From positions 7,623,186 through 7,687,185 of the forward strand of contig CM082589.2 in NCBI GenBank assembly GCA_040954595.2: DNA of 64,000 nt. Direction: 5' to 3'. Under the pieces are notes generated by a model. It had not been told where the DNA came from. It saw only the letters and a list, made by a program, of their open reading frames with translations, and made no database searches. A program made the translations under genes and the position numbers. The stretch is from Balanoglossus misakiensis. Its lineage: Eukaryota > Animalia > Hemichordata. Positions 15,375 to 42,060 of the stretch are shown piece after piece (within the stretch, counting starts at the first letter, position 1; every line of letters starts with the position of its first letter).

Positions 15375-16460
15375 TCATTAAATATGCACATACCTAATTA
15401 CAGATGAACCAATAGACCTAGAAGTTTTGTTTTTGTTATACATGGACCAGTATGGGGTCAAAATATTTTGCCCAAATTTTGGGTGACCTCGGGTGACCTT
15501 TGACCTACTTTTGCATATCTTGACATCCACAGCAGATACAGCCTTGGCGTTTGGAGGTATGGGGCAATAATGAAAAGCCAAAGTTTTGGGTCACCTGTGA
15601 TACCTGCTTAACTCATTAATTATGTGCATACCTAATTCTAGGCTAACCAAAAGGGCTAGAGGTCTGTTTTTTGATGGACATGGACCACTATGGGTCAAAA
15701 TTTTCTGCCCAAATTTTGGATGACCTCAGATGACCTTTGACGTACTTTTGCATATCTCGGCATCCAAAGCAGGTACAGCCTTGGCATTTGGAGGTATGGG
15801 GCCATAATGAAAAGCCAAAGTTTTGGGTCACCTGTGACACCTGCTTTACTCATTATTTATGTGCATACCTAATTCTAGGCTAACCAAAAGGGCTAGAGGT
15901 CTGTTTTTTGTTGGATATGGACCACTATGGGTCAAAATTTTCTGCCCAAATTTTGGATGACCTCGGGTGACCTTTGACCTACTTTTGCATATCTTGACAT
16001 CCACAGCAGATACAGCCTTGGCGTTTGGAGGTATGGGGCCATAATGTAAAGCCAAAGTTTTGGGTCACCTGTGACACCTGCTTAACTCATTAATTATGTG
16101 CATACCTAATTCTAGGCTAACCAAAAGGGCTAGAGGTCTGTTTTTTGATGGACATGGACAACTATGGGTCAAAATTTTCTGCCCAAATTTTGGATGACCT
16201 CAGATGACCTTTGACGTACTTTTGCATATCTCGGCATCCAAAGCAGGTACAGCCTTGTCATTTGGAGGTATGGGGCCATAATGAAAAGCCAAAGTTTTGG
16301 GTCACCTGTGACACCTGCTTTACGCATTATGTATGTGCATACCTAATTCCAGGCTAACCAAAAGGGCTAGAGGTCTGGTTTTTGTTGGACATGGACCACT
16401 ATGGGTCAAAATTTTCTGCCCAAATGTTGGGTGACCTCTGGGTGACCTTTGACCTACTTA
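15375..16460 (+). repeat. 237-bp internal tandem repeat expanded to ~4.5 copies in element 3
   Basis: TCACCTGTGA landmark recurs at 15591, 15828, 16065, 16302. Confidence 0.9.
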
Positions 16461-19400
16461 ACACTTTAACAGCACCAAACATACATATAACCTTGATATT
16501 TCATGGGATAAAACAGCATTATGTTTCTACTCATTAATTATGTGCATATCTAATATCAGATCAGATAATAGAGCTTGGGCCCGGACAATGCTGCTTGCAG
16601 CTTTAATCTTTCTTTCTTCTTTCTTTATTCTTGTGTCAATTCTTTGTCGCTCTAGATCTCAGACACCACTGCAGGTACACTTCTGAAACTTGCTACAGTG
16701 GTCAAGGTCAATGAGTAGTCGTGCATTGAACCCTTGAATTTCTAATTAGTCACATGACCTGGCAGCCATCTTGGATTTTCTGAAAATATGCAAATCTCAG
16801 ATCTCAGAAACTACAAGTCAGATCGACTTCAAATTTGGCGTGCAGGTAGACTACCTTCTGCTTATCATTTTTGTAATTGGAAATTTTGCTGTCAATGTTG
16901 CAGTTTTTTTGCTACAGTTGTTTTTCTGAAATCTGGTCAAAATTTCAAAAATCTTCTTCTCCAGAACCGGCGATAACCGAGTCACGCGGTTTGGGGTATG
17001 TGGTCACCAAACTGAGGTCTATCAAGTTTGCGAAGATCATTGTGATTGGTGGAAGATTATGGCGGCCATATTGGATTTTCGAAAAACCCTAGTAAAATTT
17101 CAAAAATCTTCTTCTCAAGAACCGGCGATAACCGAGTCACAAGATTTGGTGTGTGTGGTCATTAAACAGATGTCTATCAAGTTTGCGAAGATCATTGTGA
17201 TTGGTCGAAGATTTTGGCGGCCATATTGGATTTTGTGAACAACGATTAAAAAGTAAAAATTCTGTTTCTAGCCTAAAAATTGATAGCACAGAAATTCTTT
17301 TTATGGATATGAATCATCATATGACAAGAATAACCTATAAATATTTTGATAATTTTGGCAATGACCTTTGACCTACTTTTGACGAATCATTTTTCTGCAT
17401 ATCTAATTCCAGGCTAACCAATAGGGCTATAAGTTTGGTTTTTGATGTATGTGGATTTGTATGTGATCAAAAAATTTTGCTACTTTTCATGACCCCTTTG
17501 ACCTCTGCTGACCTCATTAAATATGCATATACCTAATTACAGATGAACCAATAGACCTAGAGGTTTTGCTTTTGTTATACATGGACCAGTATGGGGTCAA
17601 AATATTTTGCCCAAATGTTGGGTGACCTCGGGTGACTTTTGACCTATTTAACACTATATTAGCATCAGATCAGATAATAGAGCTTGGGCCCGGACAATGC
17701 TGCTTGCAGCTTTAATTCTTTCTTTCTTTAGGGCCCAAGCGCATACCAGCGCTTGGGCCCTATTGGTTTCGTTGGGGTTTTTCAGTCTTTCTTTCCTTCT
17801 TTATTCTTGGTTCCATTTTTCGGCCACCTAAATCTCAAAAACTGCAGCACCAACCAGGCTGAAACTTGGTAGGCAGATAGGGGCCAATCAGTAGATGTGC
17901 AGTGGCTCGTGAATATTTAATTAGTCACGTGACCTGGCGGCCATATTGGATTTTCTGAAAAAATGCAAATCTCAGATCTCAGAAACTACAAGTCAGATTG
18001 ACTTCAAATTTGGTGTGCAGCTAGTATACCTTATGCCCATCATTTTTGTAATTGGATATTATGCTGTCAATGTTGCAGTTTTTTTGCTACAGTTGTTTTT
18101 CTGAAATCTGGTCAAATTTTCAAAAATCTTCTTCTCCAGAACCGGCGATAACCGAGTCACGCCATTTGAGGTATGTGGTCACCCAACTGATGTCTATCAA
18201 GTTTGCGAAGATCATTGTGATTGGTCGAAGATTATGGCGGCCATATTGGATTTTCGAAAAACCATAGTAAAACTTCAAAAATCTTCTTCTCAAGAACGGG
18301 CGATAACCGAGTCACAAGATTTGGTGTGTGTGGTCATTAAACAGATGTCTATCAAGTTTGCGAAGGGGAATGTGATTGGTCGAAGATTATGGCGGCCATA
18401 TTGGATTTTGTGAAAAACGATTAAAAAGTAAAAATTCCCTTTCTAGCCTAAAAATTGATAGCACAGAAATTCTTTTTATGGATATGAATCATCATATGAC
18501 AAGAATAAGCTATAAATATTTTGGTAATTTTGGCAATGACCTTTGACCTACTTTTGACGCATCATTTTTCTGCATATCTAATTCTAGGCTAACCAATAGG
18601 GCTATAAGTTTGGTTTTTGATGTATGTGGATTTGTATGTGATCAAAAAATTTTGCTACTTTTCATGACCCCTTTGACCTCTGCTGACCTCATTAAATATG
18701 CACATACCTAATTACAGATGAACCGATAGACCTAGAGATTTTGTTTTTGTTATACATGGACCAGTATGGGGTCAAAATATTTTGCCCAAATGTTGGGTGA
18801 CCTCGGGTGACCTTTGACCTACTTTTGCATATCTCGACATCCACAGCAGATACAGCCTTGGCATTTGGAGGTATGGGGCCATAATGAAAAGCCAAAGTTT
18901 TGGGTCACCTGTGACACCTGCTTTACTCATTATTTATGTGCATACCTAATTCCGGGCTAACCAAAATGGCTAGAGGTCTGGTTTTTGTTGGACATGGACC
19001 ACTATGGGTCAAAATGTTCTGCCCAAATTGTGGATGACCCCTGGGTGACCTTTGATGTTTCTACTCATTAATTATGTGCATATCTAATAATCAGATCAGA
19101 TAATAGAGCTTGGGCCCGGACAATGCTGCTTGCAGCTTTAATTCTTTCTTTCTTTTTTCTTGTGTCAATTCTTCGGCCAACTAAATCTCTGAAACTACTG
19201 CAGGTACACTGCTCAAACTTGCTACAGTGGTCAAGGTCTATGAGTAGATGTGCAGTGACTTGTGAATACTTAATTAGTCACGTGACTTGGCGGCCATATT
19301 GGATTTTCTGAAAAAATGCAAATCTCAGATCTCAGAAACTACAAGTCAGATCGACTTCAAATTTGGCATGCAGGTAGACTACCTTCTACTCATCATTTTT

Positions 19401-20559
19401 GTAATTGGAAATTTTGCTGTCAATGTTGCAGTTTTTTTGCTACAATTTTTTTTCTGAAATCTGGCTTAAATTTCAAAAATCTTCTTCTCCAGAACCGGTG
19501 ATAACCGAGACACGCGGTTTAGGGTATGTGGTCACCTAACTGATGTCTATCAAGTTTGCGAAGATCATTGTGATTGGTCGAAGATTATGGCGGCCATATT
19601 GGATTTTCGAAAAACCATAGTTAAACTGCAAAAATCTTCTTCTCCAGAACGGGCGATGACTTAGTCGCAAGATTCGAGGAGTATGGTCACTACACTGATG
19701 TCTATCAAGTTTGCAAAGAGCATTGTGATTGGTCGGAGATTATGGCGGCCATATTGGATTTTGTAAAAAGCAGTGAAAAATTGAAATTCCTTTTTCTAGT
19801 CTAAAAATTGATAGCATACAAATTCTTTTTATGGATATCAATCGTCATGTGACTAAAATGTGTTACAATTTTTTGGCGATTTTTCACATGACCTTTGACC
19901 TACTTATCACGCGTTATTATTTCTGCATATCTAATTCCAGGCTAACCTGTAGGGCTAGACGTTTGGTTTTTGATGAATGTGGATTAATGTGTGATCAAAA
20001 TATTTTGCTACTTTTCATGACCCCTTTGACCTCTGCTGACCTCATTAATTATGTGCATAGCTAATTACAGGCGAACCAATAGAGCTAGAGGTTTGGTTTT
20101 TGTTGGACATGGACCAGAATGGGATCAAAATTTTTTGCCCAAATGTTGCGTGACCTCTGGTGACCTTTGACCTACTTTCGCATATCTCAGCATCCAGAGC
20201 AGATACAGCCATGGCATTTGGTAGGATGGGACCAAAATGTAAAGCCACATTTTTGGGTCAACTGTGACACCTGCTGACCTCATTAAATATGCACATACCT
20301 AATTACACGCAAACCAATAGAGCTAGAGTTTTGGTTTTTATTGGACATTATGGGTAAAAAAAAATTACCCAAATGTTGGGTGACCTCAGGTGACCTTTGA
20401 CCTACTTCACCCTATTTCAGCAGCAAAAATACACACATCCTTGTTATGTCATGAGATAATACATCCGATAGAAAATTCTGCTTCTTCTCATTCACACTGT
20501 GCATATATAATTCAAGATCAGCGCTTGGGCCCGACAATGCTGCTCGCAGCTTTAATTCT

Positions 20560-23500
20560 TTAGGGCACAAGCGCCCTCAGGCGCTTGTGCCCTATTGGTT
20601 TTACCCTGTTTTTTAGGGCACAAGCCAAGCAGGCTTGTGCCCTATTGGTATTACTGGGGTTTTTCATCTTTTTTTTTTTTTTTTTTTTCTTGTGTAGTTT
20701 TTTTGCTCAGGTAGATCTTGAAAACGGCTGAACCTACAAATCTCAAACTTGGCACAGTGGTGCAGGCCTATGAGAGCTGGTGCAGTATTCTCGTGAATGT
20801 TTAATAAGTCATGTGACCTGATGTCCATATATGGGCAAAGTTTTCAAATGGGCCTAATTTGCATATGAATGGAGATATCAAAATTCTTTTAGCGATTTTT
20901 GCGGACCATGTGGTCAGTGTCCTACATGCCAAATGTCAAGGCCGTGGGCCAAGTCTATTTTGAGAAGAAGATTTTTTTATTTTTCATATTTTTGGACCCA
21001 GCCATAGGCCTATACTTTCTATAGTTAAGCTATGATGCTATGTCCACGTCGGCTGTGCAATGGTCCTGTACAGTGACTATCTATTGGCCCGTGAGCAGAA
21101 TTGGACCACAATAAAAGGCAAAATTTTGGGCTCACCTGTAACACCTGCTTAACTCATTAATTATGTGCATACCTAATTCCAGGCTAACTAATACGGCTAG
21201 AGGTTTTGTTCTTGTGGGACTTGGACCAGTATGGGATCGAAAATTTTTGCCCAAATTTTGGGTGACCTCAAGTGACCTTTGACCTACTTTCCTATATCTC
21301 GGCATCCACAGCATTTACAGACTTGGCGTTTGGAGGGTTGTGACTAAAATTGAAAAGACTTAATTATGTGCATACCTAATTCCAGGCTAGCCAATAGGGC
21401 TAGAGGTTTGATTTTTGTTGAACATGGACCAGTATGAGGTTAAAATTTCTTGCCCAATTTTAGGTGACCTCAGGTGACCTTTGACCTACTTTACCATATC
21501 TCGGCAACCAGCGCAGATACAGCCTTAGCATTTGGAGGCATGGAACTCCTAATGAAGCCTTATACTTTACCTCATTAATTATGTGCATATCTAATTCTAG
21601 GTGAACCAATAGGGTTAGAGGTCTGATTTTTGTTAGACCTGGACTGGTATGGGGGTCAAAACTTTTTACCCAATTTTTTGGTGACCACATATGACCTTTG
21701 ACCTTCGGCTTAAGCTTGGGCCCGTCATCGCTGCTTGCAGCTATATTTCTTCTACTTCTTTTTCTTGTGCAGTTTTTTTGCCAACTAGGATCTTGGAAAC
21801 GGCTGAAGCTACGAATCTCAAACTTGGCACAATGGTGCAGGTCTATGAGAGCTCGTGCAGTACCCTCGTGAATGTGTAATTAGTCACATGACCTGATGAC
21901 CATATATGGGCAAAGTTTTCAAATGGGCCTAATTTGCATAGTAATGGAGATATCTAAATTCTTTTAGCGATTTTAGCAGACCATGTGGTCAGTGTCCTAC
22001 ATGCCAAATTTCAAGGCCCTGGGCCAAGTCAAGTTTGAGAAGAAGATTTTTAAATATTATATTTCATATTTTTTGTACCCATGAGCCTATACTGTCTTTA
22101 GTTAAGGTGTGATGCTATTCCCACATCTGTGCAATGGTCCTGTACAGTGACAGTCTATTGGCAGTGAGCAGAATGGGACCAAAATAAAAGGCAGAATTTT
22201 GGGCTCACCTGTAACACCTGCTTAACTCATTAATTATGTGCATACCTAATTCTGGGCTAACTAATAGGGCTAGAGGTTTCGTGCTTGTGGGACATGGACC
22301 ATTATAGGGTCAAAATTTCTTGCCCAAATTTTGCATGACCTCAGGTGACCTTTGACCTACTTTCCTATATCTCGTCATCCAGAGCAGGTACAGACTTTGA
22401 GTTTGGAGGGTTGGGACTATAATTGAAAAGCCAAAATTTGGGGTCACCTGTGACACCTGCTTATCTCATTAATTATGTGCATACCTAATTCCAGGCTAAC
22501 CAATAGGGCTAGAGGTTTGATTTTCGTTGAACGTGGACCACTATGGGATAAAATTTCTTGCCAAAATTTTGGGTGACCTCAGGTGACCTTTGACCTACTT
22601 TACCATATCTCGGCAACCAGAGCAGATACAGCCTTGGCATTTGGAGGGATGGAACTCCTAATGGAGCCTTACACTTTACCTCATTAATTATGTGCATACC
22701 TAATTCCAGGCTAGCCAATAGAGCTAGAGGTTTGATTTTTGTTGAACATGGACCAGTATGGGATTAAAATTTCTTGCCCAATTTTGGGTGACCTCAGGTG
22801 ACCTTTGACCTACTTTCCTATATCTCGGCATCCAGAACAGGTACAGCATTTGTGTTTGGATGGATCGAACTTTTGCCCAAATTTTGGGTGACCACATATG
22901 ACCTTTGACCTTCAGCTTAAGCTTGTGCCCGTCATCGCTGCTTGCAGCTATATATATATATTTTTTTTTCTTGTGTAGTTTTTTTGCTCAGTTAGATCTT
23001 GAAAACGGCTGAACCTACAAATCTCAAACTTGGCACAGTGGTGCAGGTCTATGAGAGCTCGTGCAGTACCCTCGTGAATGTGTAATTAGTCACATGACCT
23101 GATGACCATATATGGGCAAAGTTTTCAAATGGGCCTAATTTGCATATGAATGACGATATCAAAATTCTGTGCAATCATTTTGCTGACCATATGGTCAGTG
23201 TCCTACATGCCAAATTTCAAGGCTCTGGGCCAAGTCAATTTTGAGAAGAAGATTTGTAAATATTATATTTCATATTTTTTGGACCCAGCCATAGGCCTAT
23301 ACTTTCTATAGTTAAGCTATGATGCTATGTCCACATCTGTGCAATGTTTAAAAGCCAAAATTGGGGGTCACCTGTGACACCTACTTATCTCATTAATTAT
23401 GTGCATACCTAATTCCAGGCCAACCAATAGGGTTATAGGTTTGGTTTTTGTTGAACATGGACCAGTATAGGGTCAAAATTTCTTGCCCAAATTTTGGGTG

Positions 23501-24019
23501 ACCTCAGGTGACCTTTGACCTACTTTCCTATATCTCCGCTTCCAGAGCAGGTACAGATTTGGCGTTTGGAGGGTTGGGACTAAAATTTAAAAGCCAAAAT
23601 TGGGGGTCACCTGTGACACCTGCTTATCTCATTAATTATGTGCATACCTAATTCCAGGCTAACCAATAGGGCTAGAGGTTTAATTTTTGCTGAACATGGA
23701 CCAGTATGGGGTCAAAATTTCTTGCCCAAATTTTGGGTGACCTCAGGTGACCTTTGACCTACTTTACCATATCCCGGCATGCACAGCAGCTACAGCCTTG
23801 GCATTTGGAGGGATGGAACTCCTGATGGAGCCTTACACTTTATCTCATTAATTATGCACATACATAATTGTAGGCGAACCAATAGGGCTAGAGATTTTGT
23901 TCTTGTGGGACACGGACCAGTATGGGGTCAAAATTTCTTGCCCAAATTTTGGGTGACCACTTATGACCTCTGACCTTCGGCTTAAGCTTGGGCCCGTCAT
24001 CGCTGCTTGCAGCTATATT
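20560..24019 (+). mobile_element. Three divergent 'type B' elements with two GGGCACAAGC heads
   Basis: Distinct body sequence (AAACGGCTGAA..CTCAAACTTGGCACA); tails GCTTG(G/T)GCCCGTCATCGCTGCTTGCAGCTATAT; heads at 20563 and 20616. Confidence 0.8.
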
Positions 24020-25819
24020 TAGGGCCCAAGCGCATACCAGCGCTTGGGCCCTATTGGTTTCGTTGGGGTTTTTCTTTCTTTCTTTCTTTCTTTATTCTTC
24101 TGTCATTTCTTTGTCGCTCTAGATCTCAGACACCACTGCAGGTACAGTTCTCAAACTTGCTACAGTGGTCAAGGTCAATGAGTAGTCGTGCATTGAACCC
24201 ATGAATTTTTAATTAGTCACATGACCTGGCGGCCATCTTGGATTTTCTGAAAAAATGCAAATCTCAGATCTCAGAAACTACAAGTCAGATCGACTTCAAA
24301 TTTGGCGTGCAGGTAGACTACCTTATGTCAAACATTTTTGTAATTGGAAATTATGCTGTCAATGTTGCAGTTTTTTTGCTACAATTTTTTTTCTGAAATC
24401 TGGCTTGAATTTCAAAAATCTTCTTCTCCAGAACCAGTGATAACCGAGACATGGGATTTGGGGTATGTGGTCACCTAACTGATGTCTATCAAGTTTGCGA
24501 AGATCATTGTGATTGGTCGAAGATTATGGCGGCCATATTGGATTTTCGAAAAACCCTAGTAAAATTTCAAAAATCTTCTTCTCAAGAACCAGCGATAACC
24601 GAGTCACAAGATTTTGTGTGTGTGGTCATTCAACAGATGTCTATCAAGTTTGCGAAGAGGAATGTGATTGGTCGAAGATTATGGCGGCCATATTGGATTT
24701 TCTTAAAAACGATTAAAGAGTAAAAATTCCCTTTCTAGCCTAAAAATTGATAGCACAGAAATTCTTTTTATGGATATGAATCATCATATAACAAGAATAA
24801 GCTATAAATATTTTGGTAATTTTGGCAATGACCTTTGACCTACTTTTGACGCATCAATTTTCTGCATATCTAATTCCAGGCTAACCAATAGGGCTATAAG
24901 TTTGGTTTTTGATGTATGTGGATTTGTATGTGATCAAACAATTTTGGTACTTTTCATGACCCCTTTGACCTCTGCTGACCTCATTAAATATGCGCATACC
25001 TAATTGCAGGTGAACCAATAGACCTAGAGGTTTTGTTTTTGTTGGACAGGACAAGTATAGGGTCAAAAATTTTTACCCAAATTTTGGGTGACCTCTGGTG
25101 ACCTTTGACCTAATTTCGCAAATCTCAGCATCCACAGCAGATACAGCCTTGGCGTTTGGAGGTATGGGGCCATAATGAAAAGCCAAAGTTTTGGGTCACC
25201 TGTGACACCTGCTTAACTCATTATTTATGTGCATACCTAATTCCGGGCTAACCAAAAGGGTTAGAGGTCTGGTTTTTGTTGGACATGGACCACTATGGGT
25301 CAAAATTTTCTGCACAAACTGTGGGTGACCTCTGACCTACTTAACACTATATCAGCACTAAACATAGATATAATCTTGATATTTCATGGGATAAAACACA
25401 GCATTATGTTTCTACTCATTAATTATGTGCATATCTAATAATCAGATCAGATAATAGAGCTTGGGCCCGGACAATGCTGCTTGCAGCTTTAATTCTTTCT
25501 TTATTCTTATGTCAATTCTTTGTCGCTCTAGATCTCAGACACCACTGCAGGTACAGTTTTCAAACTTGCTACAGTGGTCAAGGTCAATGAGTAGTCGTGC
25601 ATTGAACCCATGAATTTTTAATTAGTCACGTGACCTGGCGGCCATATTGGATTTTCTGAAAAAATGCAAATCTCAGATCTCAGAAACTACAAGTCAGATC
25701 AACTTCAAATTTGGCATGCTGGTAGACTACCTTCTGCCCATCATTTTTGTAATTGGAAATTATGCTGACAATGTTGCAGTTTTTTTGCTACAATTTTTTT
25801 TCTGAAATCTGGCTTAAAT

Positions 25820-26275
25820 TTCAAAAATCTTCTTCTCCAGAACCGGCGATAACCGAGTCACGCCGTTTGGGGTATGTGGTCACCTAACAGATGTCTATCA
25901 AGTTTGCGAAGATCATTGTGATTGGTCGAAGATTATGGCGGCCATATTGGATTTTCGAAAAACCCTAGTAAAATTTCAAAAATCTTCTTCTCCAGAACCG
26001 GCGATAACCGAGTCACGCCGTTTGGGGTATGTGGTCACCTAACAGATGTCTATCAAGTTTGCGAAGATCATTGTGATTGGTTGAAGATTATGGCGGCCAT
26101 ATTGGATTTTCGAAAAACCATAGTAAAACTTCAAAAATCTTCTTCTCAAGAACGGGCGATAACTGAGTCACAAGATTTGGTGTGTGTGGTCATTAAACAG
26201 ATGTCTATCAAGTTTGCGAAGGGGAATGTGATTGGTCGAAGATTATGGCGGCCATATTGGATTTTGTGAAAAATG
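25820..26275 (+). repeat. 155-bp internal tandem repeat, three copies (two in most elements)
   Basis: AAAATCTTCTTCTC landmark at 155-bp spacing (25824, 25979, 26134). Confidence 0.9.
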
Positions 26276-27067
26276 ATTAAAAAGTAAAAATTCCTTTTCT
26301 AGCCTAAAAATTGATAGCACAGAAATTCTTTTTATGGATATGAATCATCATATGACAAGAATAAGCTATAAATATTTTGGTAATTTTGGCAATGACCTTT
26401 GACCTACTTTTGACGCATCATGTTTCTGCATATCTAATTCCAGGCTAACCAATAGGGCTATAAGTTTGGTTTTTAATGTATGTGGATTTGTATGTGATCA
26501 AAAAATGTTGCTACTTTTCATGACCCCTTTGACCTCTGGTGACCTCATTAAATATGCGCATACCTAATTAATGATGAACCAATAGACCTAGAGGTTTTGT
26601 TTTTGTTATACATGGACCAGTATGGGGTCAAAATTTGTTGCCCAAATGTTGGGTGACCTCAGGTGACCTTTGACCTACTTTGGCATATCTTGACATCCAC
26701 AGCAGATACAGCCTTGGCGTTTGGAGGTATAGGGCCATAATGAAAAGCCAAAGTTTCGGGTCACCTGTGACACCTGCTTAACTCATTATTTATGTGCATA
26801 CCTAATTCCGGGCTAACCAAAAGGGCTAAAGATCTGGTTTTTGTTGGACATAGACCACTATGGGTCAAAATATTCTGCCCAAATAATTGGTGACTTGGTG
26901 ACCTTTGACCTACTTAATACTATGTCAACACCAAACCTAGATATAACCTTGATATTTCATGGGATAAAACACAGCATTATGTTTCTACTCATTAATTATG
27001 TGCATATCTAATAATCAGATCAGATAATAGAGCTTGGGCCCGGACAATGCTGCTTGCAGCTTTAATT

Positions 27068-30000
27068 GGGGGCACAAGCGCCCTCAGGCGGCTTGTGCCC
27101 CCATTGTTATTGTTGGAATTTTTCTTTATTATTAGGGCCCAAGCGCTTGCTTGCGCTTGGGCCCTATTGGTTTCGTTGGGGTTTTTCTTTAGGGCCCAAG
27201 CGCAAGCAAGCGCTTGGGCCCTATTGGTTTCGTTGGGGTTTTTTAGGGCCCAAGCGCACAGCAGCGCTTGGGCCCTATTGGTTTCGTTGGGGTTTTTCTT
27301 TCTTTCTTTCTTTCTTTCTTTATTCTTGGTTCACTTCTTTGTCGCTCTAGATCTCAGACACCACTGCAGGTACAGTTTTCAAACTTGCTACAGTGGTCAA
27401 GGTCAATGAGTAGTCGTGCATTGAACCCTTGAATTTTTAATTAGTCACGTGACCTGGCGGCCATATTGGATTTTCTGAAAAAATGCAAATCTCAGATCTC
27501 AGAAACTACAAGTCAGATCAACTTCAAATTTGCTGTGCAGGTAGTCTACCTTCTACCCATCATTTTTGTAATTGGATATTTTGCTGTAAATGTTGCAGTT
27601 TTTTTGCTACAATTTTTTTTCTGAAATCTGGCTTAAATTTCAAAAATCTTCTTCTCCAGAACCTGTGATAACCGAGTGACGCGGTTTGGGGTATGTGGTC
27701 ACCTAACTGATGTCTATCAAGTTTGATAAGAAGCATTGTGATTGGTCGAAGATTATGGCGGCCATATTGGATTTTCGAAAAACCATAGTAAAACTGCAAA
27801 AATCTTCTTCTCCAGAACGGGCGATAACTGAGTCGCAAGATTCGAGGAGTATGGTCACAACACTGATGTCTATCAAGTTTGCAAAGAGCATTATGATTGG
27901 TCGAAGATTATGGCGGCCATATTGGATTTTGTAAAAAGCTGTGAAAAATTGAAATTCCTTTTCCTAGTCTAAAAATTGATAGCATACAAACTCTTTTTAT
28001 GGATATCAATCGTCATGTGACTAAATTATGTTACAATTTTTTGGCGATTTTTCACATGACCTTTGACCTACTTTTCACACGTTATTATTTCTGCATATCT
28101 ATTTCCAGGCTAACCTATAGGGCTAGACGTTTGGTTTTTGATGCATGTGGATTAGTGTGTGATCAAAATATTTTGCTACTTTTCATGACCCCTTTGACCT
28201 CTGCTGACCTCATTAATTATGTGCATAGCTAATTACAGGCGAACCAATAGAGCTAGAGGTTTGGTTTTTGTTGGACACAGACCAGTATGGGATCAACATT
28301 TTTTGCCCAAATGTTGCGTGACCTCTGGTGACCTTTGACCTACTTTCGCATATCTCAGCATCCAGAGCAGATACAGCCATGGCATTTGGTAGGATGGGAC
28401 CAAAATGTAAAGCCACATTTTTGGGTCACCTGTGACACCTGCTGACCTCATTAAATATGCACATACCTAATTACAGGCGAACCAATAGAGCTAGAGTTTT
28501 GGTTTTTGTTGGACATGGACCAGTATGGGTAAAAAAAAATGCCCAAATGTTGGGTGACCTTAGGTGACCTTTCACCTACTTTCAGCAGCAAAAATACACA
28601 CATCCTTGTTACGTCATGAGATAATTCATCCGATAAAAAATTCTGTTTCTTCTCATTCATACTGTGCATATATAATTCAAGATCAGCGCTTGGGCCCGAC
28701 AATGCTGCTCGCAGCTTTAATCTTTCTTTCTTTCTTTCTTTCTTTTTTCTTGTGTCAATTCTTCGGCCAACTAAATCTCTGAAACTACTGCAGGTACACT
28801 GCTCAAACTTGCTACAGTGGTCAAGGTCTATGAGTAGATGTGCAGTGACTTGTGAATACTTAATTAGTCATGTGACCTGGCGGCCATATTGGATTTTCTG
28901 AAAAAAATCAAATCTCAGATCTCAGAAACTACAAGTCAGATCGACTTCAAATTTGGCATGCAGGTAGACTACCTTCTACCCATCATTTTTGTAATTGGAA
29001 ATTTTGCTGTCAATGTTGCAGTTTTTTTGCTACAATTTTTTTTCTGAAATCTGGCTTAAATTTCAAAAATCTTCTACTCCAGAACCGGTGATAACCGAGA
29101 CACAGGGTTTGGGGTATGTGGTCACCTAACTGATGTCTATCAAGTTTGCGAAGATCATTGTGATTGGTCGAAGATTATGGCGGCCATATTGGATTTTCGA
29201 AAAACCATAGTTAAACTCCAAAAATCTTCTTCTCCAGAACGGGCGATAACTGAGTTGCAAGATTCGGGGAGTATGGTCACTACACTGATGTCTATCAAGT
29301 TTGCAAAGAGCATTGTGATTGGTCGAAGATTATGGCGGCCATATTGGATTTTGTAAAAAGCAGTGAAAATTTGAAATTCCTTTTTCTAGTCTAAAAACTG
29401 ATAGCATACAAATTCTTTTTATGGATATCAATCGTCATGTGACTAAAATAGGTTACAATTTTTGGCGATTTTTCACATGACCTTTGACCTACTTATCACG
29501 CGGTATTATTTCTGCATATCTAATTCCAGGCTAACCTATAGGGCTAGACGTTTGGTTTTTGATGAATGTGGATTAGTGTGTGATCAAAATATTTTGCTAC
29601 TTTTCATGACCCCTTTGACCTCAGCTGACCTCATTAATTATGTACATAGCTAATTACAGGCGAACCAATAGAGCTAGAGGTTTTGTTTTTGTTGGACATG
29701 GACCAGTATGGGATCAAAATTTTTTGCCCAAATGATGGGTGACCTCTGGTGACCTTTGACCTACTTTCGCATATCTCAGCATCCAGAGCAGGTACAGCCG
29801 TGGCATTTGGTAGGATGGCACCAAAATGTAAAGCCAAATTTTTGGGTCACCTGTGACACCTGTTGACCTCATTAAATATGCACATACCTAATTACAGGTG
29901 AACCAATAGAGCTAGAGTTTTGGTTTTTGTTGGACATGGACCAGTATGGGTAAAAAAAATTGCCCAAATGTTGGGTGACCTCAGGTGACCTTTGACCTAC

Positions 30001-32773
30001 TTCACCCTATTTAAGCAGCAAAAATACACACATCCTTGTTATGTCATGAGATAATACATCCGATACAAAATTCTGTTTCTTCTCATTCATACTGTGCATA
30101 TATAATTCAAGATCAGCGCTTGGGCCCGACAATGCTGCTCGCAGCTTTAATTCTTTCTTTCTTTTTTCTTGTGTCAATTCTTCGGCCAACTAAATCTCAG
30201 AAACTACTGCAGGTACACTGCTCAAACTTGCTACAGTGGTCAAGGTCAATGAGTAGATGTGCAGTGACTTGTGAATACGTAATTAGTCACGTGACCTGGC
30301 GGCCATATTGGATTTTCTGAAAAAATGCAAATCTCAGATCTCAGAAACTACAAGTCAGATCGACTTCAGATTTGGTGTGCTGGTAGTGTACCTTCTGCCC
30401 ATCATTTTTGTAATTGGATATTTTGCTGTCAATGTTGCAGTTTTTTTGCTACAGTTGTTTTTCTGAAATCTGGTCAAAATTTCAAAAATCTTCTTCTCCA
30501 GAACCGGTGATAACCGAGACACGGGGTTTGGGGTATATGGTCACCTAACTGTTGTCTATCAAGTTTGCGAAGATCATTGTGATTGGTCGAAGATTATGGC
30601 GGCCATATTGGATTTACGAAAAACCATAGTTAAACTCCAAAAATCTTCTTCTCCAGAACGGGCGATGACTGAGTTGCAAGATTCGGGGAGTATGGTCACT
30701 ACACTGATGTCTATCAAGTTTGCAAAGAGCATTGTGATTGGTCGAAGATTATGGCGGCCATATTGGATTTTGTAAAAAGCAGTGAAAATTTGAAATTCCT
30801 TTTTCTAGTCTAAAATTTGATAGCATACAAATTATTTTTATGGATATCAATCGTCATGTGACTAAAATATGTTACAATTTTTTTGCGATTTTTCACATGA
30901 CCTTTGACCTACTTATCACGCGTTATTATTTCTGCATATCTAATTCCAGGCTAACCTATAGGGCTAGACGTTTGGTTTTTGATGAATGTGGATTAGTGTG
31001 TGATCAAAATATTTTGCTACTTTTCATGACCCCTTTGACCTCTGCTGACCTCATTAATTATGTGCATAGCTAATTACAGGCGAACCAATAGAGCTAGGGG
31101 TTTGGTTTTTGTTGGACATGGACCAGTATAGGATCAAAATTTTTTCCCCAAATGTTGGGTGACCTCTGGTGACCTTTGACCTACTTTCGTATATCTCAGC
31201 ATCCAGAACAGATACAACCATGGCATTTGGTAGGATGGGACCAAAATGTAAAGCCACATTTTTGGGTCACCTGTGACGCCTGCTGACCTCATTAAATATG
31301 CACATACCTAATTACAGGCGAACCAATAGAGCTAGAGTTTTGGTTTTTGTTGGACATGGACCAGTATGGGTCAAAAAAAATGCCCAAATGTCGGATGACT
31401 TCAGGTGACCTTTGACCTACTTCACCCTATTTCAGCGGCAAAAATATACACATCCTTGTTATGTCATGAGATAATACATCCGATAGAAAATTCTGTTTCT
31501 TCTCATTCATACTGTGCATATATAATTCAAGATCAGCGCTTGGGCCCGACAATGCTGCTCGCAGCTTTAATTATTATTCTTCTTCTTCTTCTTCTTCTTC
31601 CGAGAAATTCGGCCAGGTAGATCTGGAAAACCGCAGCACCTAGGGGGCTGAAACTTGGTAGGGTGATAGGGGCCAATGAGTAGACGTGCAGTGGCCCGTG
31701 AATATTTAATTAGTCATGTGACCTGGCGGCCATATTGGATTTCCTGAAAACCGTTAAATGAGTCCTTCTCAAAAACTACAAGGCCGATCGAGTTCAAACT
31801 TGGTGTGCAGGTAGCCTACCTTCTGTCCATCATTTTACCCCATTGAAATCATGACGTCACACATAAAGTTTTTTTGCTACAATTGTTTTTCTTAAAAAAT
31901 ACTTAAAATTTTAAAAATCTTCTTCTCCAGAACCAGCGGTTACCGATTCTCGGGATTTGGGATATGTGGTCACCTAACCTATGTCTATCAAGTTTGCGAA
32001 GCGCACTGTGATTGGTCGATCATTATGGCGGCCATGTTGGATTTTCGGAAAACCATTGAAAAATGAAAATTCTGTTTTGTAGCCAAAATGTTGACAGCAC
32101 GGAAATTCTTTTTTTGGATATGAGTCATCATATGACAGGAAGTTGTCACGATTTTTCGTGGCAATTTTCACATGACCTTTGACCCAGTTTTAAAACAACT
32201 AATTATATATGCATATTCCCCATACCTCCTCTTGTAAAAGCACCACATTCATGAATTTTGTGGACATGGGTACCAATGCTGTCAGGACATGACACAAATA
32301 TTTTGGTAATTTTGGCAATGACCTTTGACCTATTTCTGCATATCTAATTCCATGCTACCCAATAGGGCTAGAGGTCTGGTATTGGTTGGACATGGCCCAG
32401 TCTGGGGTCAAAATTTTATGCCCTAATTTTGGGTGACCTTGGGTGACCTTTGATCTACTTTCCCATATCTCAGCATCCAGAGCAGTTAGAGCCCTGGCTT
32501 TTATAGGTTTTGAGCACATAATGGTGTCTTACACAAGACCTCATTAATTATGTGCATACCTAATTGCAGGCGAACCAATAGGGCTAGGGGTCTGGTTTTT
32601 TGTTGGATCTAGACTAGTATGGGGTCCAATTTTTTTGCCCAAATTTGGGGTGACCTCAGGTGACCTTTGACCTACTTTCCCATGTCTTGGTATCCCCAGC
32701 AGATACAGCCGTGGAATTTGCTGGTCACCATGGGAACTGCTTGTGCCCCCCCAACGCTGCTTGCAGCTTTAAT
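27068..32773 (+). mobile_element. Divergent 'type C' element (head 27068, body 31572-32773) enclosing three nested elements
   Basis: The unique head GGGGGCACAAGC..GCTTGTGCCCCC matches the unique tail GCTTGTGCCCCCCCAACGCTGCTTGCAGC; exactly three heads and three bodies lie between them. Confidence 0.85.
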
Positions 32774-35700
32774 TAGGGCCCAAGCGCAAGCCAGCGCTTG
32801 GGCCCTATTGGTTTCGTTGGGGTTTTTACGGGCCCAAGCCAAGCCAGGCTTGGGCCCGTATTGGTTTCGTTGGGGTTTTTCTTTCTTTCTTTATTCTTAT
32901 GTCAATTCTTTGCTCTCCTAGATCTCTGAAACGGCTACAGGTACACTTCTCAAACTTGCTACAGTGGTCAAGGTCAATGAGTAGATGTGCAGTGGCTTGT
33001 GAATATTTAATTAGTCACGTGACCTGGCGGCCATATTGGATTTTCTGAAAATCTTTAAATGGCTTCTTCTCAAAAACCACAGGGCCAATCAAGTTCAAAT
33101 TTGGTGTATGGTACACATGTCCTCTGCCCTTCAAAGTTTGACAATAAAATCCTGAGCGGTCACGTGACTTTGGCCGCCATATTGGATTTTCAAAAAAGTA
33201 CAGTAAAATCTTCAAAAATCTTCTTCTCCAGAACCGGCAATAACCAAGTCATGGGATTTAGGGTATGACATCACCTAACTGATGTCTATCAAGTTTGCGA
33301 AAACCGTTGTGATTGGTCGAAGATTATGGCGGCCATATTGGATTTTGTAAACACCAGTGAAAATTAAGAAATCATTTTTCTAGTCTAAAAATAGATAGCA
33401 TACAAATTCTTTTTATGGATATGAGTCGTCATATGACTAGAATATGTTGCAAATATTTTGGCAATTTTCACATGACCTTTGACCTACTTTTTAAAGAACC
33501 TGCATATATGCATATATAGCTAATACTACGTGTTCTAAATGTACCAGAGTTCTGATTTTTGTGCACATTGGTATCACCCCTGCCAGGACCTACCCCAAAT
33601 ATTTTGGTAATTTTGGCAATGACCTTTGACCTACTTTTGACACATCGTTTTTTCTGCATATCTTATTCCAGGCTAACCTATAGGGCTATCATTTTGGTTT
33701 TTGATGTATGTGGATTTGTATGTGATCAAAAAATTTCGCTACTTTTCAAGACCCCTTTGACCTCTGCTGACCTCATTAAATATGCGCATACCTAATTACA
33801 GATGAACCAATAGACCTAGAGGTTTGGTTTTTGTTGGACATGGACCAGTATTGGGTCAAAATTTGTTGCCCAAATGTTGGGTGACCTCGGGTGACCTTTG
33901 ACCTACTTTTGCATATCTCGACATCCACAGCAGATACAGCCTTGGCGTTTGGAGGTATGGGGCCATAATGAAAAGCCAAAGTTTTGGGTCACCTGTGACA
34001 CCTGCTTAACTCATTATTTATGTGCATACCTAATTCCAGGCTAACCAAAAGGGCTAGAGGTCTGGTTTTTGTTGGACATGGACCACTATGGGTCAAAATA
34101 TTCTGCCCAAATTTTTGGTGACCCCTGGGTGACCTTTGACCTACTTTAAACACTATATCAGCACCAAACATAGATATAACCTTGATATTTCATGCGATAA
34201 AAGACAACATCATGTTTCTACTCATTAATTATGTGCATATCTAATAATCAGATCAGATAATAGAGCTTGGGCCCGGACAATGCTGCTTGCAGCTTTAATT
34301 CTTTCTTCTTTCTTTCTTTATTCTTGTGTCAATTCTTTGTCGCTCTAGATCTCAGACACCACTGCAGGTACACTTCTGAAACTTGCTACAGTGGTCAAGG
34401 TCAATGAGTAGTCGTGCATTGAACTCTTGAATTTTTCATTAGTCACGTGACATGGCGGCCATATTGGATTTTCTGAAAAAATGCAAATCTCAGATCTCAG
34501 AAACTACAAGTCAGATTTACTTCAGATTTGGTGTGCTGGTAGTGTACCTTCTGCCCATCATTTTTGTAATTGGATATTTTGCTGTCAATGTTGCAGTTTT
34601 TTTGCTACAGTTGTTTTTCTGAAATCTGGCTTAAATTTCAAAAATCTTCTTCTCCAGAACCGGCGATAACCGAGTCACGCGGTTTGGGGTATGTGGTCAC
34701 CAAGCTGAGGTCTATCAAGTTTGCGAAGATCATTGTGATTGGTCGAAGATTATGGCGGCCATATTGGATTTTAAAAAAACCCTAGTAAAATTTCAAAAAT
34801 CTTCTTCTCAAGAACCGGCGATAACTGAGTCACAAGATTTGGTGTGTTTGGTCATTAAACAGATGTCTATCAAGTTTGCGAAGAGGAATGTGATTGGTCG
34901 AAGATTATGGCGGCCATACTGGATTTTGTGAAAAACGATTAAAAAGTAAAAATTCCCTTTCTAGCCTAAAAATTGATAGCACAAAAATTCTTTTTACGGA
35001 TATGAATCATCATATGCCAAGAATAAGCTATAAATATTTTGGTAATTTTGGCAATGACCTTTGACCTACTTTTGACACATCGTTTTTTCTGCATATCTAA
35101 TTCCAGGCTAACCTATAGGGCTATCATTTTGGTTTTTGATGTATGTGGATTTGTATGTGATCAAAAAATTTCGCTACTTTTCATGACCCCTTTGACCTCT
35201 GCTGACCTCATTAAATATGCACATACCTAATTACAGATGAACCAATAGACCTAGAGGTTTGGTTTTTGTTGGACATGGACCAGTATTGGGTCAAAATTTG
35301 TTGCCCAAATGTTGGGTGACCTCGGGTGACCTTTGACCTACTTTTGCATATCTCGACATCCACAGCAGATACAGCCTTGGCGTTTGGAGGTATGGGGCCA
35401 TAATGAAAAGCCAAAGTTTTGGGTCATCTGTGACACCTGCTTAACTCATTATTTATGTGCATACCTAATTCCAGGCTAACCAAAAGGGCTAGAGGTCTGG
35501 TTTTTGTTGGACATGGACCACTATTGGTCAAAATTTTCTGCCCAAATTTTGGGTGACCTCAGATGACCTTTGACCTACTTTTGCATATCTCGGCATCCAA
35601 AGCAGGTACAGCCTTGGCATTTGGAGATATGGGGCCATAATGAAAAGCCAAAGTTTTGGGTCACCAGTGACACCTGCTTAACTCATCATTTATGTGCATA

Positions 35701-38700
35701 CCTAATTCCGGGCTAACCAAAAGGGCTAGAGGTCTGTTTTTGTTGGACATGGACCACTATGGGTAAAATTTTCTGCCCAAATTGTGGGTGACCTCTGGGA
35801 GACCTTTGACCTACGTAACACTATATCAGCACCAAACATACATATAACCTTGATATTTCATGGGATAAAACACAGCATTATGTTTCTACTCATTAATTAT
35901 GTGCATATCTAATAATCAGATCAGATAATAGAGCTTGGGCCCGGACAATGCTGCTTGCAGCTTTAATTCTTTCTTTATTCTTATGTCAATTCTTTGTCGC
36001 TCTAGATCTCAGACACCACTGCAGGTACAGTTTTCAAACTTGCTACAGTGGTCAAGGTCAATGAGTAGTCGTGCATTGAACCCATGAATTTTTAATTAGT
36101 CACGTGACCTGGCGGCCATATTGGATTTTCTGAAAAAATGCAAATCTCAGATCTCAGAAACTACAAGTCAGATTGACTTCAAATTTGGTGTGCAGCTAGT
36201 ATACCTAATGCCCATCATTTTTGTAATTGGATATTTTGCTGTCAATGTTGCAGTTTTTTTGCTACAGTTGTTTTTCTGAAATCTGGTCAAAATTTCAAAA
36301 ATCTTCTTCTCCAGAACCGGCGATAACCGAGTCACGCCGTTTGGGGTATGTGGTCACCTAACTGATGTCTATCAAGTTTGCGAAGATCATTGTGATTGGT
36401 CGAAGATTATGGCGGCCATATTGGATTTTCGAAAAACCATAGTAAAACTTCAAAAATCTTCTTCTCAAGAACCGGCAATAACCGAGTCACAAGATTTGGT
36501 GTGTGTGGTCATTAAATAGATGTCTATCAAGTTTGCGAAGAAGAATGTGATTGGTCGTAGATTATGGCGGCCATGTTGGATTTTGTGAAAAACGATTAAA
36601 AAGTAAAAATTCCCTTTCTAGCCTAAAAATTGATAGCACAGAAATTCTTTTTATGGATATGAATCATCATATGACAAGAATAACCTATAAATATTTTGGT
36701 AATTTTGGCAATGACCTTTGACCTACTTTTGACGCATCGTTTTTCTGCATATCTAATTCCAGGCTAACCAATAGGGCTATAAGTTTGGTTTTTGATGTAT
36801 GTGGATTTGTATGTGATCAAAAAATTGTGCTACTTTTCATGACCCCTTTGACCTCTGCTGACCTCATTAAATGTGCGCATACCTAATTACAGATGAACCA
36901 ATAGACCTAGAGGTTTGGTTTTTTTGGACATGGATCAGTATGGGGTCAAAATATTTTGCCCAAATGTTGGGTGACCTCGGGTGACCTTTGACCTACTTTT
37001 GCATATCTCGACATCCACAGCAGATACAGCCTTGGCGTTTGGAGATATGGGGCCATAATGAAAAGCCAAAGTTTTGGGTCACCTGTGACACCTGCTTAAC
37101 TCATTATTTATGTGCATACCTAATTCCGGGCTAACCAAAAGGGCTAGAGGTCTGGTTTTTGTTGGACATGGACTACTTTGGGTCAAAATTTTCTGCCCAA
37201 ATTTTGGGTGACCTCAGATGACCTTTGACCTATTTTTGCATATCTCGACATCCAAAGCAGGTACAGTCTGGGCATTTGGAGGTATGGGGCCATAATGAAA
37301 AGCCAAAGTTTTGGCTCACCTGTGACACCTGCTTTACGCATTATTTATGTGCATACCTAATTCCGGGCTAACCAAAAGGGCTAGAGGTCTGGTTTTTGAT
37401 GGACATGGACCACTATGGGTCAAAATTTTCTGCCCAAATTGTGGGTGACCTCTGGATGACCTTTGACCTACTTAATACTATATCAGCACCAAACATAGAT
37501 ATAACCTTGATATTTCATTTGCTAAAACACAGCATTATGTTTCTACTCATTAATTATGTGCATATCTAATAATCAGATCAGATAATAGAGCTTGGGCCCG
37601 GACAATGCTGCTTGCAGCTTTAATCTTTCTTTCTTTCTTTTTTCTTGTGTCAATTCTTCGGCCAACTAAATCTCAGAAACTACTGCAGGTACACTGCTCA
37701 AACTTGCTACAGTGGTCAAGGTCAATGAGTAGATGTGCAGTGACTTGTGAATACGTAATTAGTCACGTGACCTGGCGGCCATATTGGATTTTCTGAAAAA
37801 ATGCAAATCTCAGATCTCAGAAACTACAAGTCAGATCGACTTCAGATTTGGTGTGCAGGTAGTGTACCTTCTGCCCATCATTTTTGTAATTGGATATTTT
37901 GCTGTCAATGTTGCAGTTTTTTTGCTACAGTTGTTTTTCTGAAATCTGGTCAAAATTTCAAAAATCTTCTTCTCCAGAACCGGTGATAACCGAGACACGG
38001 GGTTTGGGGTATGTGGTCACCTAACTGATGTCTATCAAGTTTGCGAAGATCATTGTGATTGGTCGAAGATTATGGCGGCCATAATGGATTTACGAAAAAC
38101 CATAGTTAAACTCCAAAAATCTTCTTCTCCAGAACGGGCGATGACTGAGTTGCAAGATTCGGGGAGTATGGTCACTACACTGATGTCTATCAAGTTTGCA
38201 AAGAGCATTGTGATTGGTCGAAGATTATGGCGGCCATATTGGATTTTGTAAAAAGCAGTGAAAAATTGAAATTCCTTTTTCTAGTCTAAAAATTGATAGC
38301 ATACAAATTCTTTTTATGGATATCAATCGTCATGTGACTAAAATATGTTACAATTTTTTGGCGATTTTTCACATGACCTTTGACCTACTTACCAAGCGTT
38401 ATTATTTCTGCATATCTAATGCCAGGCCAACCTATAGGGCTAGACGTTTGGTTTTTGATGAATGTGGATTAGTGTGTGATCAAAATATTTTGCTACTTTT
38501 CATGACCCCTTTGACCTCTGCTGACCTCATTAATTATGTGCATAGCTAATTACAGGCGAACCAATAGAGCTAGAGGTTTGGTTTTTGTTGGACTAGGACC
38601 AGTATGGGGTCAAAATTTTTTGCCCAAATGTTGGGTGACCTCTGGTGACCTTTGACCTACTTTCGCATATCTCGGCATCCAGAGCAGATAAAGCCATGGC

Positions 38701-41700
38701 ATTTGGTAGGATGGGACCAAAATGTAAAGCCACATTTTTGGGTCACCTGTGACACCTGCTGACCTCATTAAATATGCACATACCTAATTACAGGCGAACC
38801 AATAGAGCTAGAGTTTTGGTTTTTGTTGGACATGGACCAGTATGGGTCAAAAAAATTGCCCAAATGTTGGGTGACCTCAGGTGACCTTTGACCTACTTCA
38901 GCAGCAAAAATACACACATCCTCGTTATGTCATGAGATAATACATCTGATAGAAAATTCTGTTTCTTCTCATTCATACTGTGCATATATAATTCAAGATC
39001 AGCGCTTGGGCCCGACAATGCTGCTCGCAGCTTTAATTCTTTCTTTATTCTTGGTTCCATTCTTTGGCCAACGAGATCTCAGACACCTCTGCAGGTACAC
39101 TTCTCAAACTTGCTACAGTGGTCAAGGTCAATGAGTAGATGTGCAGTGACTTGTGAATACTTAATTAGTCACGTGACCTGGCGGCCATATTGGATTATAT
39201 GAAAAAATTCAAATCTCAGATCTCAGAAACTACAAGTCAGATCGACTTCAAATTTGGCATGCAGGTAGACTACCTTCTACCTATCATTTTTGTAATTGGA
39301 AATTTTGCTGTCAATGTTGCAGTTTTTTTGCTACAGTTGTTTTTCTGAAATCTGGTTAAAATTTCAAAAATCTTCTTCTCCAGAACTGGTGATAACTGAG
39401 TCACGCGGTTTGGGGTATGTGGTCACCTAATTGATGTCTATCAAGTTTGCGAAGATCATTGTGATTGGTCGAAGATTATGGCGGCCATATTGGATTTTCG
39501 AAAAACCATAGTAAAACTTCAAAAATCTTCTTCTCCAGAACGGGCGATAACTGAGTCGCAAGATTTGGGGAGTATGGTCACTACACTGATGTCTATCAAG
39601 TTTGCAAAGAGCATTGTGATTGGTCGAAGATTATGGCGGCCATATTGGATTTTGTAAAAAGCAGTGAAAAATTAAAATTACTTTTTCTAGTATAAAAATT
39701 GATAGCATACAAATTCTTTTTATGGATATCAATCGTCATATGACTACAATATGTTACAAATTTTTGGCGTTTTTTCACATGACCTTTGACCTACTTTTCA
39801 CACATTATTATTTCTGCATATCTAATTCCAGGCTAACCTATAGGGCTAGACGTTTGGTTTTTGATGCAAGTGGATTAGTGTGTGATCTAAAAATTTTGCT
39901 ACTTTTCATTACCCCTTTGACCTCTGCTGACCTCATTAATTATGTGCATAGCTAATTACAGGCGAACCAATAGAGCTAGAGGTTTGGTTTTTGTTGAACA
40001 TGGACCAGTATGGGGTCAAATTTTTTTGCCCAAATGTTGGGTGACCTCTGGTGACCTTTGACCTACTTTCGCATATCTCAGCATCCAGAGCAGATACAGC
40101 CTTGGCATTTGGCAGGATGGGAGCTAAATGTAAAGCCAAATTTTTGGGTCACCTGTGACACCTGCTGACTTCATTTAATATGCACATACCTAATTACAGG
40201 CGAACCAAGAGAGCTAGAGTTTTGGTTTTTGTTGGACATGGACCAGTATGGGTAAAAAAAATTGCCCAAATGTTGGGTGACCTCATGTGACCTTTGACCT
40301 ACTTCACCCTATTTCAGCAGCAAAAATACACACATCCCTGTTATGTCATGAGATAATACATCCGATATTAAATTCTGTTTCTTCTCATTCATACTGTGCA
40401 TATATAATTCAAGATCAGCGCTTGGGCCCGACAATGCTGCTTGCAGCTTTAATTCTTTCTTGCTGTCTTTCTTTCTTTAGGGCCCAAGCGCACGCAAGCG
40501 CTTGGGCCCTATTGGTTTCGTTGGGGTTTTTTAGGGCCCAAGCCCAGCAGGCTTGGGCCCTATTGTTTTTACTGGAGTTTTTTAGGGCCCAAGCGCATAC
40601 CAGCGCTTGGGCCCTATTGGTTTCGTTGGGGTTTTTCTTTCTTTCTTTATTCTTCTGTCATTTCTTTGTCGCTCTAGATCTCAGACACCACTGCAGGTAC
40701 AGTTCTCAAACTTGCTACAGTGGTCAAGGTCAATGAGTAGTCGTGCATTGAACCCATGAATTTTTAATTAGTCACATGACCTGGCGGCCATCTTGGATTT
40801 TCTGAAAAAATGCAAATCTCAGATCTCAGAAACTACAAGTCAGATCCACTTCAAATTTGGCGTGCAGGTAGACTACCTTCTGTCAAACATTTTTGTAATT
40901 GGAAATTATGCTGTCAATGTTGCAGTTTTTTTGCTACAATTTTTTTTCTGAAATCTGGCCTAAATGTCAAAAATCTTCTTCTCCAGAACCGGTGATAACC
41001 GAGACACGGGGTTTGGGGTATGCGGTCACCTAACTGATGTCTATCAAGTTTGCGAAGATCATTGTGATTGGTCGAAGATTATGGCGGCCATATTGGATTT
41101 TCGAAAAACCCTAGTAAAATTTCAAAAATCTTCTTCTCGAGAACCGGCGATAACCGAATCACAAGATTTTGTGTGTGTGGTCATTAAACAGATGGCTATC
41201 AAGTTTGCGAAGAGGAATGTGATTGGTCGAAGATTATGGCGGCCATATTGGATTTTGTGAAAAACGATTAAAAAGTAAAAATTCCCTTTCTAGCCTAAAA
41301 ATTGATAGCACAGAAATTCTTTTCATGGATATGAATCATCATATAACAAGAATAAGCTATAAATATTTTGGTAATTTTGGCAATGACCTTTGACCTACTT
41401 TTGACGCATCAATTTTCTGCATATCTAATTCCAGGCTAACCAATAGGGCTATAAGTTTGGGTTTTGATGTATGTGAATTTGTATGTGATCAAAAAATTTT
41501 GCTACTTTTCATGACCCCTTTGACCTCTGCTGACCTCATTAAATATGCGCATACCTAATTACAGATGAACCAATAGACCTAGAGGTTTGGTCTTTTTTGG
41601 ACATTGATCAGTATGGGGTCAAAATAATTTGTCCAAATTTTGGGTGACCTCAGGTGACCTTTGACCTACATTCGCATTTCTCGGTATCCAAAGCAGATAC

Positions 41701-42060
41701 AGCCTTGGCGTTTTGAGGTATGGGGTCATAATGAAAAGCCAAATTTTTGGGTCACCAGTGACACCTGCTGACCTCATTAAATATGCACATACCTAATTAC
41801 ACGCAAACTAATAGAGCTAGAGTTTTGGTTTTTGTTGGACATGGACCACTATGGGTCAAAATTTTCTGCCCAAATTGTGGGTGACCTCTGGGTGACCTTT
41901 GACCTGCTTAACACTATATCAACACCAAACATAGATATAACCTTGATATGTCATGGGATAAAACACAGCATTATGTTTCTACTCATTAATTATGTGCATA
42001 TCTAATAATCAGATCAGATAATAGAGCTTGGGCCCGGACAATGCTGCTTGCAGCTTTAAT

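Follow-up and report, generated by a model that had tools for sequence, protein, structure and literature searches.

The interval 27068-32773 of a 64,000-nt stretch of the Balanoglossus misakiensis genome (GenBank assembly GCA_040954595.2, contig CM082589.2, positions 7,623,186 to 7,687,185 of the forward strand; hereafter the window) belongs to a nest of non-coding elements inserted one inside another. Each element has a 5' head, in which a short repeat is folded into a GC-rich hairpin ahead of a T-rich microsatellite, and a body that ends in a 3' tail with an inverted copy of the repeat; the head and the body of an element are separated by the elements that it has received. Judged by their structure, the elements are likely non-autonomous Helitron2/Helentron rolling-circle transposons (HINE, DINE-1-like). 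We propose, with a probability of roughly 0.85, that a RepHel transposase from an autonomous partner copies such elements and joins the copies to the 5' side of a T close to where a T-rich tract begins.

The interval itself is a family D element split by three elements of family B. Head and tail of this bracket are each unique, as a first-pass annotation had claimed: GGGGGCACAAGC occurs once on the + strand (27068-27079) and GCTTGTGCCCCCC once, at 32739, where that annotation had placed the tail at about 32740. With up to one mismatch allowed and both strands considered, GGGGGCACAAGC has three matches (0.10 expected; none of 100 shuffles reaches three), namely the head, its own hairpin arm at 27091-27102 and the tail at 32739-32750, and its reverse complement is restricted to that hairpin (27091) and that tail (32739). 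The head at 27068, whose hairpin folds at -20.9 kcal/mol (z -7.7), has a 12-bp inverted repeat in common with the tail at 32739, whereas it matches the three enclosed B tails over 7 bp; B heads match B tails over 12-13 bp and the D tail over 5-6. Exactly three GGGCCC heads (27135, 27192 and 27246) and three tails ending in TTTAAT (28721, 30151 and 31571) are enclosed, in keeping with the earlier count, while the body that closes the bracket at 32773 is a fourth one, unlike these three; the identity of the D body to other families is 61-73%. Because the enclosed bodies are 94-96% alike and the closest relative of the one at 31569 (98%) ends at 39035, their identities indicate that they are not local duplicates. 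The left part of the D element ends with TTATTATT (27126-27133), the right part resumes with TATTATTCTTCTTC at 31572, and scripted excision of the insert 27132/31572 leaves an in-phase (TTA)n(TTC)n tract, so the two halves rejoin as had been suggested. That the split lies within the microsatellite stands, but its exact base does not, as T's at both ends allow a shift of one base either way. Similarly, the nesting holds, but the bracket is not the self-contained case it was taken for: it is not free-standing and sits at depth 5-6 within the 41-kb nest.

The D head is joined to the far D body elsewhere. Five public runs from two samples (X1 to X5) were used, X1-X4 for contigs placed on 27040-32800 (X1 11,315; X2 5,426; X3 59; X4 59) and X1, X2, X3 and X5 for the head alone. 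The search for contiguous head-body copies that the first-pass annotation had proposed as its check yielded one such contig, from a run (X5) that possibly derives from the window's own sample, but from a different locus. This contig (record 18, 259 nt) covers 27066-27134 with one letter different and then continues into sequence that has a single site in the window, 31589-31618; its left flank is T-rich and absent from the window. Because the left flank differs and the head runs into 31589-31618, the D head and body, 4.4 kb apart here, are contiguous at a different locus, and together they read as one element of 1.27 kb. Copies of the D body with a different 5' head had been named as evidence to the contrary; record 18 carries the same head. 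In record 20 of the same run, an E-type head is followed by a start that resembles that of the body ending at 43466, as our parse of the nest predicts. Record 19 continues like the body ending at 22952, but its head is too unlike that at 20563 to count as further support, and the metagenome contigs that matched the head motif had neither hairpin nor body similarity (13 of 13) and were set aside as chance matches. A loose contig end in run X2 implies a B-tail-to-head joint absent from the window, which weakly hints at other such arrays.

The order seen in the bracket extends to the whole nest. All 26 GC-rich head hairpins and 28 tails of the window are on the + strand between 11043 and 52424, with the bodies falling into families A (12), A' (2), B (9), C (3), E (1) and D (1). 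When heads are read as opening and tails as closing brackets, last in, first out, and two of the 28 tails are dropped, head type equals body family in 26 of 26 pairs; none of 2000 shuffles of the 18 tails that are not head-adjacent, with dropping two likewise allowed, reached 26 concordant pairs, the best reaching 24. The 10 uninterrupted copies (8 A, 1 B and 1 C) obey the same rule. A type-free test on the 16 non-adjacent pairs correlates head distance with body distance at rho 0.70 (0 of 5000 permutations) or 0.69 (3 of 5000), depending on which A tail is left out. Within family B, the loop TTGCTT occurs only in the heads at 11214 and 27135, and their partners, 39035 and 31569, are the two most similar B bodies (98%), one pair out of 36 possible. 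Family A is found within B and B within A; B also lies within D, D and C within A, and A within an E copy that is itself within B. This mutual nesting makes it likely that A, B, C, D and E were active together.

These data bear on two ways of making such an array without nesting. Multiplication of heads and bodies in place, by tandem duplication or unequal crossing-over, could be read from the 54-bp tandem-like runs of heads, the mosaic bodies and the two surplus tails, but neighbouring bodies come from families 61-86% alike while sister bodies lie far apart, the mirror order matches in every pair, and at another locus the D head and the D body are contiguous; this explanation is already largely refuted and we consider it very improbable. 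Tandem arrays could also arise via rolling-circle over-replication or recombination of element circles. Helitron circles and head-rich tandem arrays are known (PMC5148889, PMC12628747; here and below, papers are cited for the parts of their text that were available), and the nest has nine tail-head joints. However, this route predicts a single-family order of head-body-head-body, whereas up to ten heads are stacked here before any body and most tail-head joints join different families (A-D, D-A, C-A, E-A, B-A and B-C). Typed mirror order is likewise not an outcome of circle recombination, and this route has a very slim chance.

The insertion sites are as regular as the order. Each of the 25 inner insertions falls 20-45 nt behind the head of its host, in the T-rich microsatellite and on the same strand; this zone behind the hairpin comprises 3.4% of the (A/T)|T sites, both strands counted. 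Sixteen follow a head, 11 of them at 20-21 nt from the hairpin, and nine follow a tail, six within 0-1 nt. The longest pyrimidine run falls within the zone in 26 of 26 reconstructed elements, and for 21 of the 25 used sites the host offers no other site as rich in pyrimidines (16 of 25 by T count); each body also has about 20 runs of at least four T in which no copy has landed. In all 26 paired elements, two or more T stand at the left and one or more at the right; with TT taken as the element start, the base that follows is T in 26 of 26 and the preceding base is T in 21 and A in 5. Removal of the inserts restores in-phase microsatellites with no duplication beyond the T's, a one-base T duplication and a terminal T being indistinguishable at these sites.

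From the observed unity of the D element, the last-in-first-out order and the insertion zone, we infer copying and joining by RepHel. In our model, the transposase would be supplied from elsewhere in the genome, copy an element from the 5' hairpin through the 3' subterminal repeat and join the copy 5' of a T near the beginning of a T/pyrimidine tract; canonical Helitrons likewise nick 5' of a T. As the richest pyrimidine tract of the element, and a one-stranded one, the microsatellite would fix both place and direction, and a new arrival would bring a fresh tract and leave the old one behind its own tail. Because the tract is one-stranded and every copy brings a new one, the locus would be self-feeding, with place and direction repeated; insertion behind a head would build the head stack and insertion behind a tail a tail-head joint. 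The main alternative for the targeting step, which we regard as unlikely though worth serious attention, keeps the same nesting but has the transposase drawn to the ends of resident copies, through a bound hairpin or the 3' motif, and not to the T-rich tract itself. The tight spacing behind heads and tails and the unused T runs of the bodies are in line with this alternative, but the zone in any case exceeds the rest of the element in T and pyrimidine content, both favoured positions are the 5' edge of the tract, and dispersed copies are preceded by T-rich sequence, the 30 nt available of which contain no element. With a similarly low probability, one might see in the HINE/DINE-1 microsatellite a built-in landing pad of a self-targeting family in which resident copies are harmless sinks and single insertions grow into nested arrays. 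If so, arrays of tens of kilobases would resemble satellites yet read as insertion-order stacks, and nests could move as units, swap heads and bodies, and found new subfamilies.

The assignment to the Helitron2/Helentron class comes from the anatomy of the elements. At the 5' end, TT is followed by a 10-13-bp repeat folded in a hairpin, a spacer, and a microsatellite of either (TTTC)n or (TTA)n(TTC)n; in the 3' part, the body carries tandem arrays of 155-bp and 237-bp units and is followed by the repeat in inverted copy, a short palindrome, and a terminal TTTAA or TATA. The subterminal inverted repeats are thus short (12 bp in D, 12-13 bp in B, each against its own tails) and asymmetric, the 5' repeat being 2-3 bp from the element start and the 3' repeat 22-24 bp from the end. 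All 26 hairpins incorporate the 5' repeat in stems of 13-15 bp (three were folded, z -6.1 to -7.7), and the palindrome GCTGC-TT/TC-GCAGC is present in 28 of 28 tails. Copy numbers of the central arrays vary, with 2-4.6 copies of the 237-bp unit and 2-3 of the 155-bp unit (15374-16459, 25816-26273 and 35199-35814), the latter presumably resembling the oyster Cg170/pearl repeats. The nest contains no long open reading frame, the longest stop-free frame being 169 aa over the head stack, and Rfam gave no match in 26900-33000. Canonical Helitron1 elements have 5' TC, 3' CTRR, an A|T target and no inverted repeats; here the ends are TTAGGG, TTACGG or TTGGGG and CTTTAA or GCTATA instead. True nesting by another transposon class, such as a T-rich-site miniature inverted-repeat transposable element (MITE), would accord with the lack of protein evidence and the weak 3' hairpin. 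Unlike the terminal inverted repeats of a cut-and-paste MITE, however, the repeats are subterminal and asymmetric (5' 2 bp in, 3' 22-24 bp in), the 5' end forms a hairpin, and the target has no fixed duplication, none extending beyond T, so that we deem another class improbable. The anatomy does fit the definitions of Helitron2/HLE2 and HINE (PMC3627910, PMC11417382, PMC4067079, PMC7492417), and the repeats of non-autonomous Helitron2/Helentron elements are expected to be 8-15 bp long, the 5' one 0-4 bp and the 3' one 20-60 bp from the end.

Several observations weigh against our model. No transposase was found in the window, the class being assigned by structure, and the arms of the 3' palindrome are only 5 bp; the two tails that were folded do not exceed shuffled sequences in stability (z -0.16 and +1.48). 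Head types (loop letters) and the target zone were set after inspection of the data, and the order of side-by-side insertions is not readable from the nest. Two tails lack heads, and with 15 equivalent choices of the surplus pair they have no unique identification. There is one C head that directly adjoins a body with a tail one base different from it (20616/21745). For six A heads, inspection gives a better match to B tails (12 bp) than to A tails (10 bp); the sister bodies 19140 and 44955 bear different hairpins, and bodies are mosaics. Finally, no contig record of four runs spans 27040-32800, where the microsatellite 31563-31607 was skipped as a repeat, and none of those listed shows the direct joint 27132-31572. 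This last result and the highly repetitive nature of the region are what an assembly artefact would have in its favour; against it, no body pair in the nest is above 98% identity, the flanks rejoin as one element, and typed mirror order and in-phase microsatellites are not expected from mis-joins, which makes an artefact extremely improbable. Assembly collapse could, however, explain the two missing heads. More likely, the surplus tails arose when copying ran past one tail as far as the following one, or when heads were lost by slippage. The body ending at 25491, 27064, 34297, 35965 or 37622 is the candidate for the surplus A body; picking the surplus tails by head-body distance correlation was indecisive. 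The A-head matches to B tails and the differing hairpins of 19140 and 44955 together indicate that heads and bodies were also exchanged.

The mosaics take several forms. The two A' bodies (ending at 13021 and 34297) have an unrelated 5' half on an A-type 3' half, and both copies lie 20 nt behind an A head, possibly as a composite that moved as a unit. The first 200 nt of the bodies ending at 19140 and 44955 are divergent, and the body ending at 28719 is A-like for its first 200 nt and B afterwards. C and D heads (20563 and 27070) have the loop CCCTCAGG and the GGGCAC repeat in common, with bodies only about 63% alike. The loop TTGCTT is the exact inversion of the AAGCAA of other B heads. Flip-flop replication of the hairpin was considered and rejected: the two B heads (of nine) that have the loop are partners of sister bodies, and a flipped loop is absent from all 13 A heads. 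A single inherited inversion in one sub-lineage is the likely origin.

On either side of the nest lie the arms of one inverted-repeat element (Table 1), a MITE-like sequence of about 790 bp with long imperfect inverted arms. Since both flanks are arms of the same element, they were likely once contiguous, with the outermost copy of the nest inserted between them. Farther right, 52983-58311 holds long tetranucleotide microsatellites (CAGA, CAAA, AGAT, GTCT and TGTA) of up to about 150 units, and exon-like frames at 56729-63246 encode a secreted subtilase (Peptidase_S8) and then two Link (Xlink) domains, possibly in one gene; the only relative found is a protein of the hemichordate Glandiceps talaboti (52%).

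Table 1 The nest, the split D element and the flanking arms in window coordinates
Feature	Position	Strand	Description
Unrelated inverted-repeat element (MITE-like), left half	10658..11042	+	48-bp arm 10658-10703, 94% to right arm
Whole nest	11043..52424	+	41.4 kb; 26 heads, 28 tails; deepest level 10
Opening stack of ten heads	11043..11620	+	Start of whole nest
Stretch with likely headless bodies	20559..27065	+	Three C bodies against two C heads; one surplus A body at this level
Family D element, 5' part	27066..27132	+	TT, GGGGGCACAAGC in hairpin 27067-27103, spacer, microsatellite start up to the cut
Family B element in D	27132..31571	+	Head 27133-27189 (loop TTGCTT), body 30152-31571; 1,477 bp minus passengers
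Family B element, 24 nt behind preceding hairpin	27189..30151	+	Head 27190-27243 (loop AAGCAA), body 28722-30151
Innermost family B element, uninterrupted	27243..28721	+	1,478 bp; hairpin 27244-27277, (TTTC)n, two 155-bp central repeats, tail
Family D element, 3' part	31572..32773	+	Microsatellite remainder, body, 3' subterminal repeat 32739-32750, palindrome 32756-32767, end TTTAA
Unrelated inverted-repeat element, right half	52425..52831	+	Arm 52784-52831; TA outside both arms

The nest shows how a dispersed transposon can become a 41-kb array without tandem duplication, and it offers a possible function for the microsatellite of HINE/DINE-1 elements, a module so far unexplained. It directly records relative insertion age, and its 25 insertions into near-identical targets give a base-level view of target choice for a class whose biochemistry was called untested in 2014 (PMC4067079). 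Repeat annotators would mis-cut such arrays into headless monomers and a spurious 54-bp satellite.

The non-autonomous Helentrons HINE/DINE-1 (Thomas, Vadnagara and Pritham 2014, PMC4067079) resemble our elements in the 5' subterminal repeat with its partner arm, the microsatellite, the central tandem repeats, the 3' subterminal repeat with a short palindrome, the T's at the ends and the T-rich or TT target without target modification; in contrast, the copies described in the available text are dispersed and not nested in their own microsatellite. Likewise, Helitron2/HLE2 elements (Bao and Jurka 2013, PMC3627910; Li et al. 2024, PMC11417382) have asymmetric 8-15-bp repeats, similarly placed at 0-2 bp from the 5' end and about 20-30 bp from the 3' end, a 5' hairpin, a T start, insertion at TTTT|T/C or T|T, and compensating repeat changes, here seen between D and A/B; in Xenopus HelenXT233, the left end is present twice, in direct repeat (PMC11417382). 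They differ in that 5 of 26 sites here are A|T under a constant-end model, that the available text does not describe deep nests, and that the class is defined by the RepHel tree whereas our elements are known from structure alone. Oyster Cg_HINE/pearl elements (PMC7492417) have the same modules, central repeats of 140-180 bp (155 bp here) and members that combine two array types (155 and 237 bp here). At C. gigas loci (PMC12628747), Helitron parts are also inserted in other elements, but they are shuffled and truncated, whereas the 41-kb nest parses almost perfectly. The available hemichordate and amphioxus literature, including PMC4016481 and PMC3630058, has nothing on such nests. Self-insertion is already known for the class, but no array this large or orderly was found in the literature searched, nor was a deep ordered nest at the elements' own microsatellite, most subscription papers, Repbase reports and supplements lying outside this coverage. 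A lepidopteran Helitron-like family, to go by the title of a 2010 paper by Coates et al., reportedly disrupts (GAAA)n microsatellites, the opposite strand of the (TTTC)n tract used here. Also comparable are the Helitrons of Fusarium and Metarhizium (PMC5148889) and the multi-terminus Helitrons of maize (PMC3288121), for which self-insertion near the 5' end and multiple termini have been proposed, and which are alike in their multiple 5' ends and in reading through to later 3' ends. Those cases involve one to three copies (three in Metarhizium), while the nest described here holds 28 copies of six families, ten deep, at one class of position.

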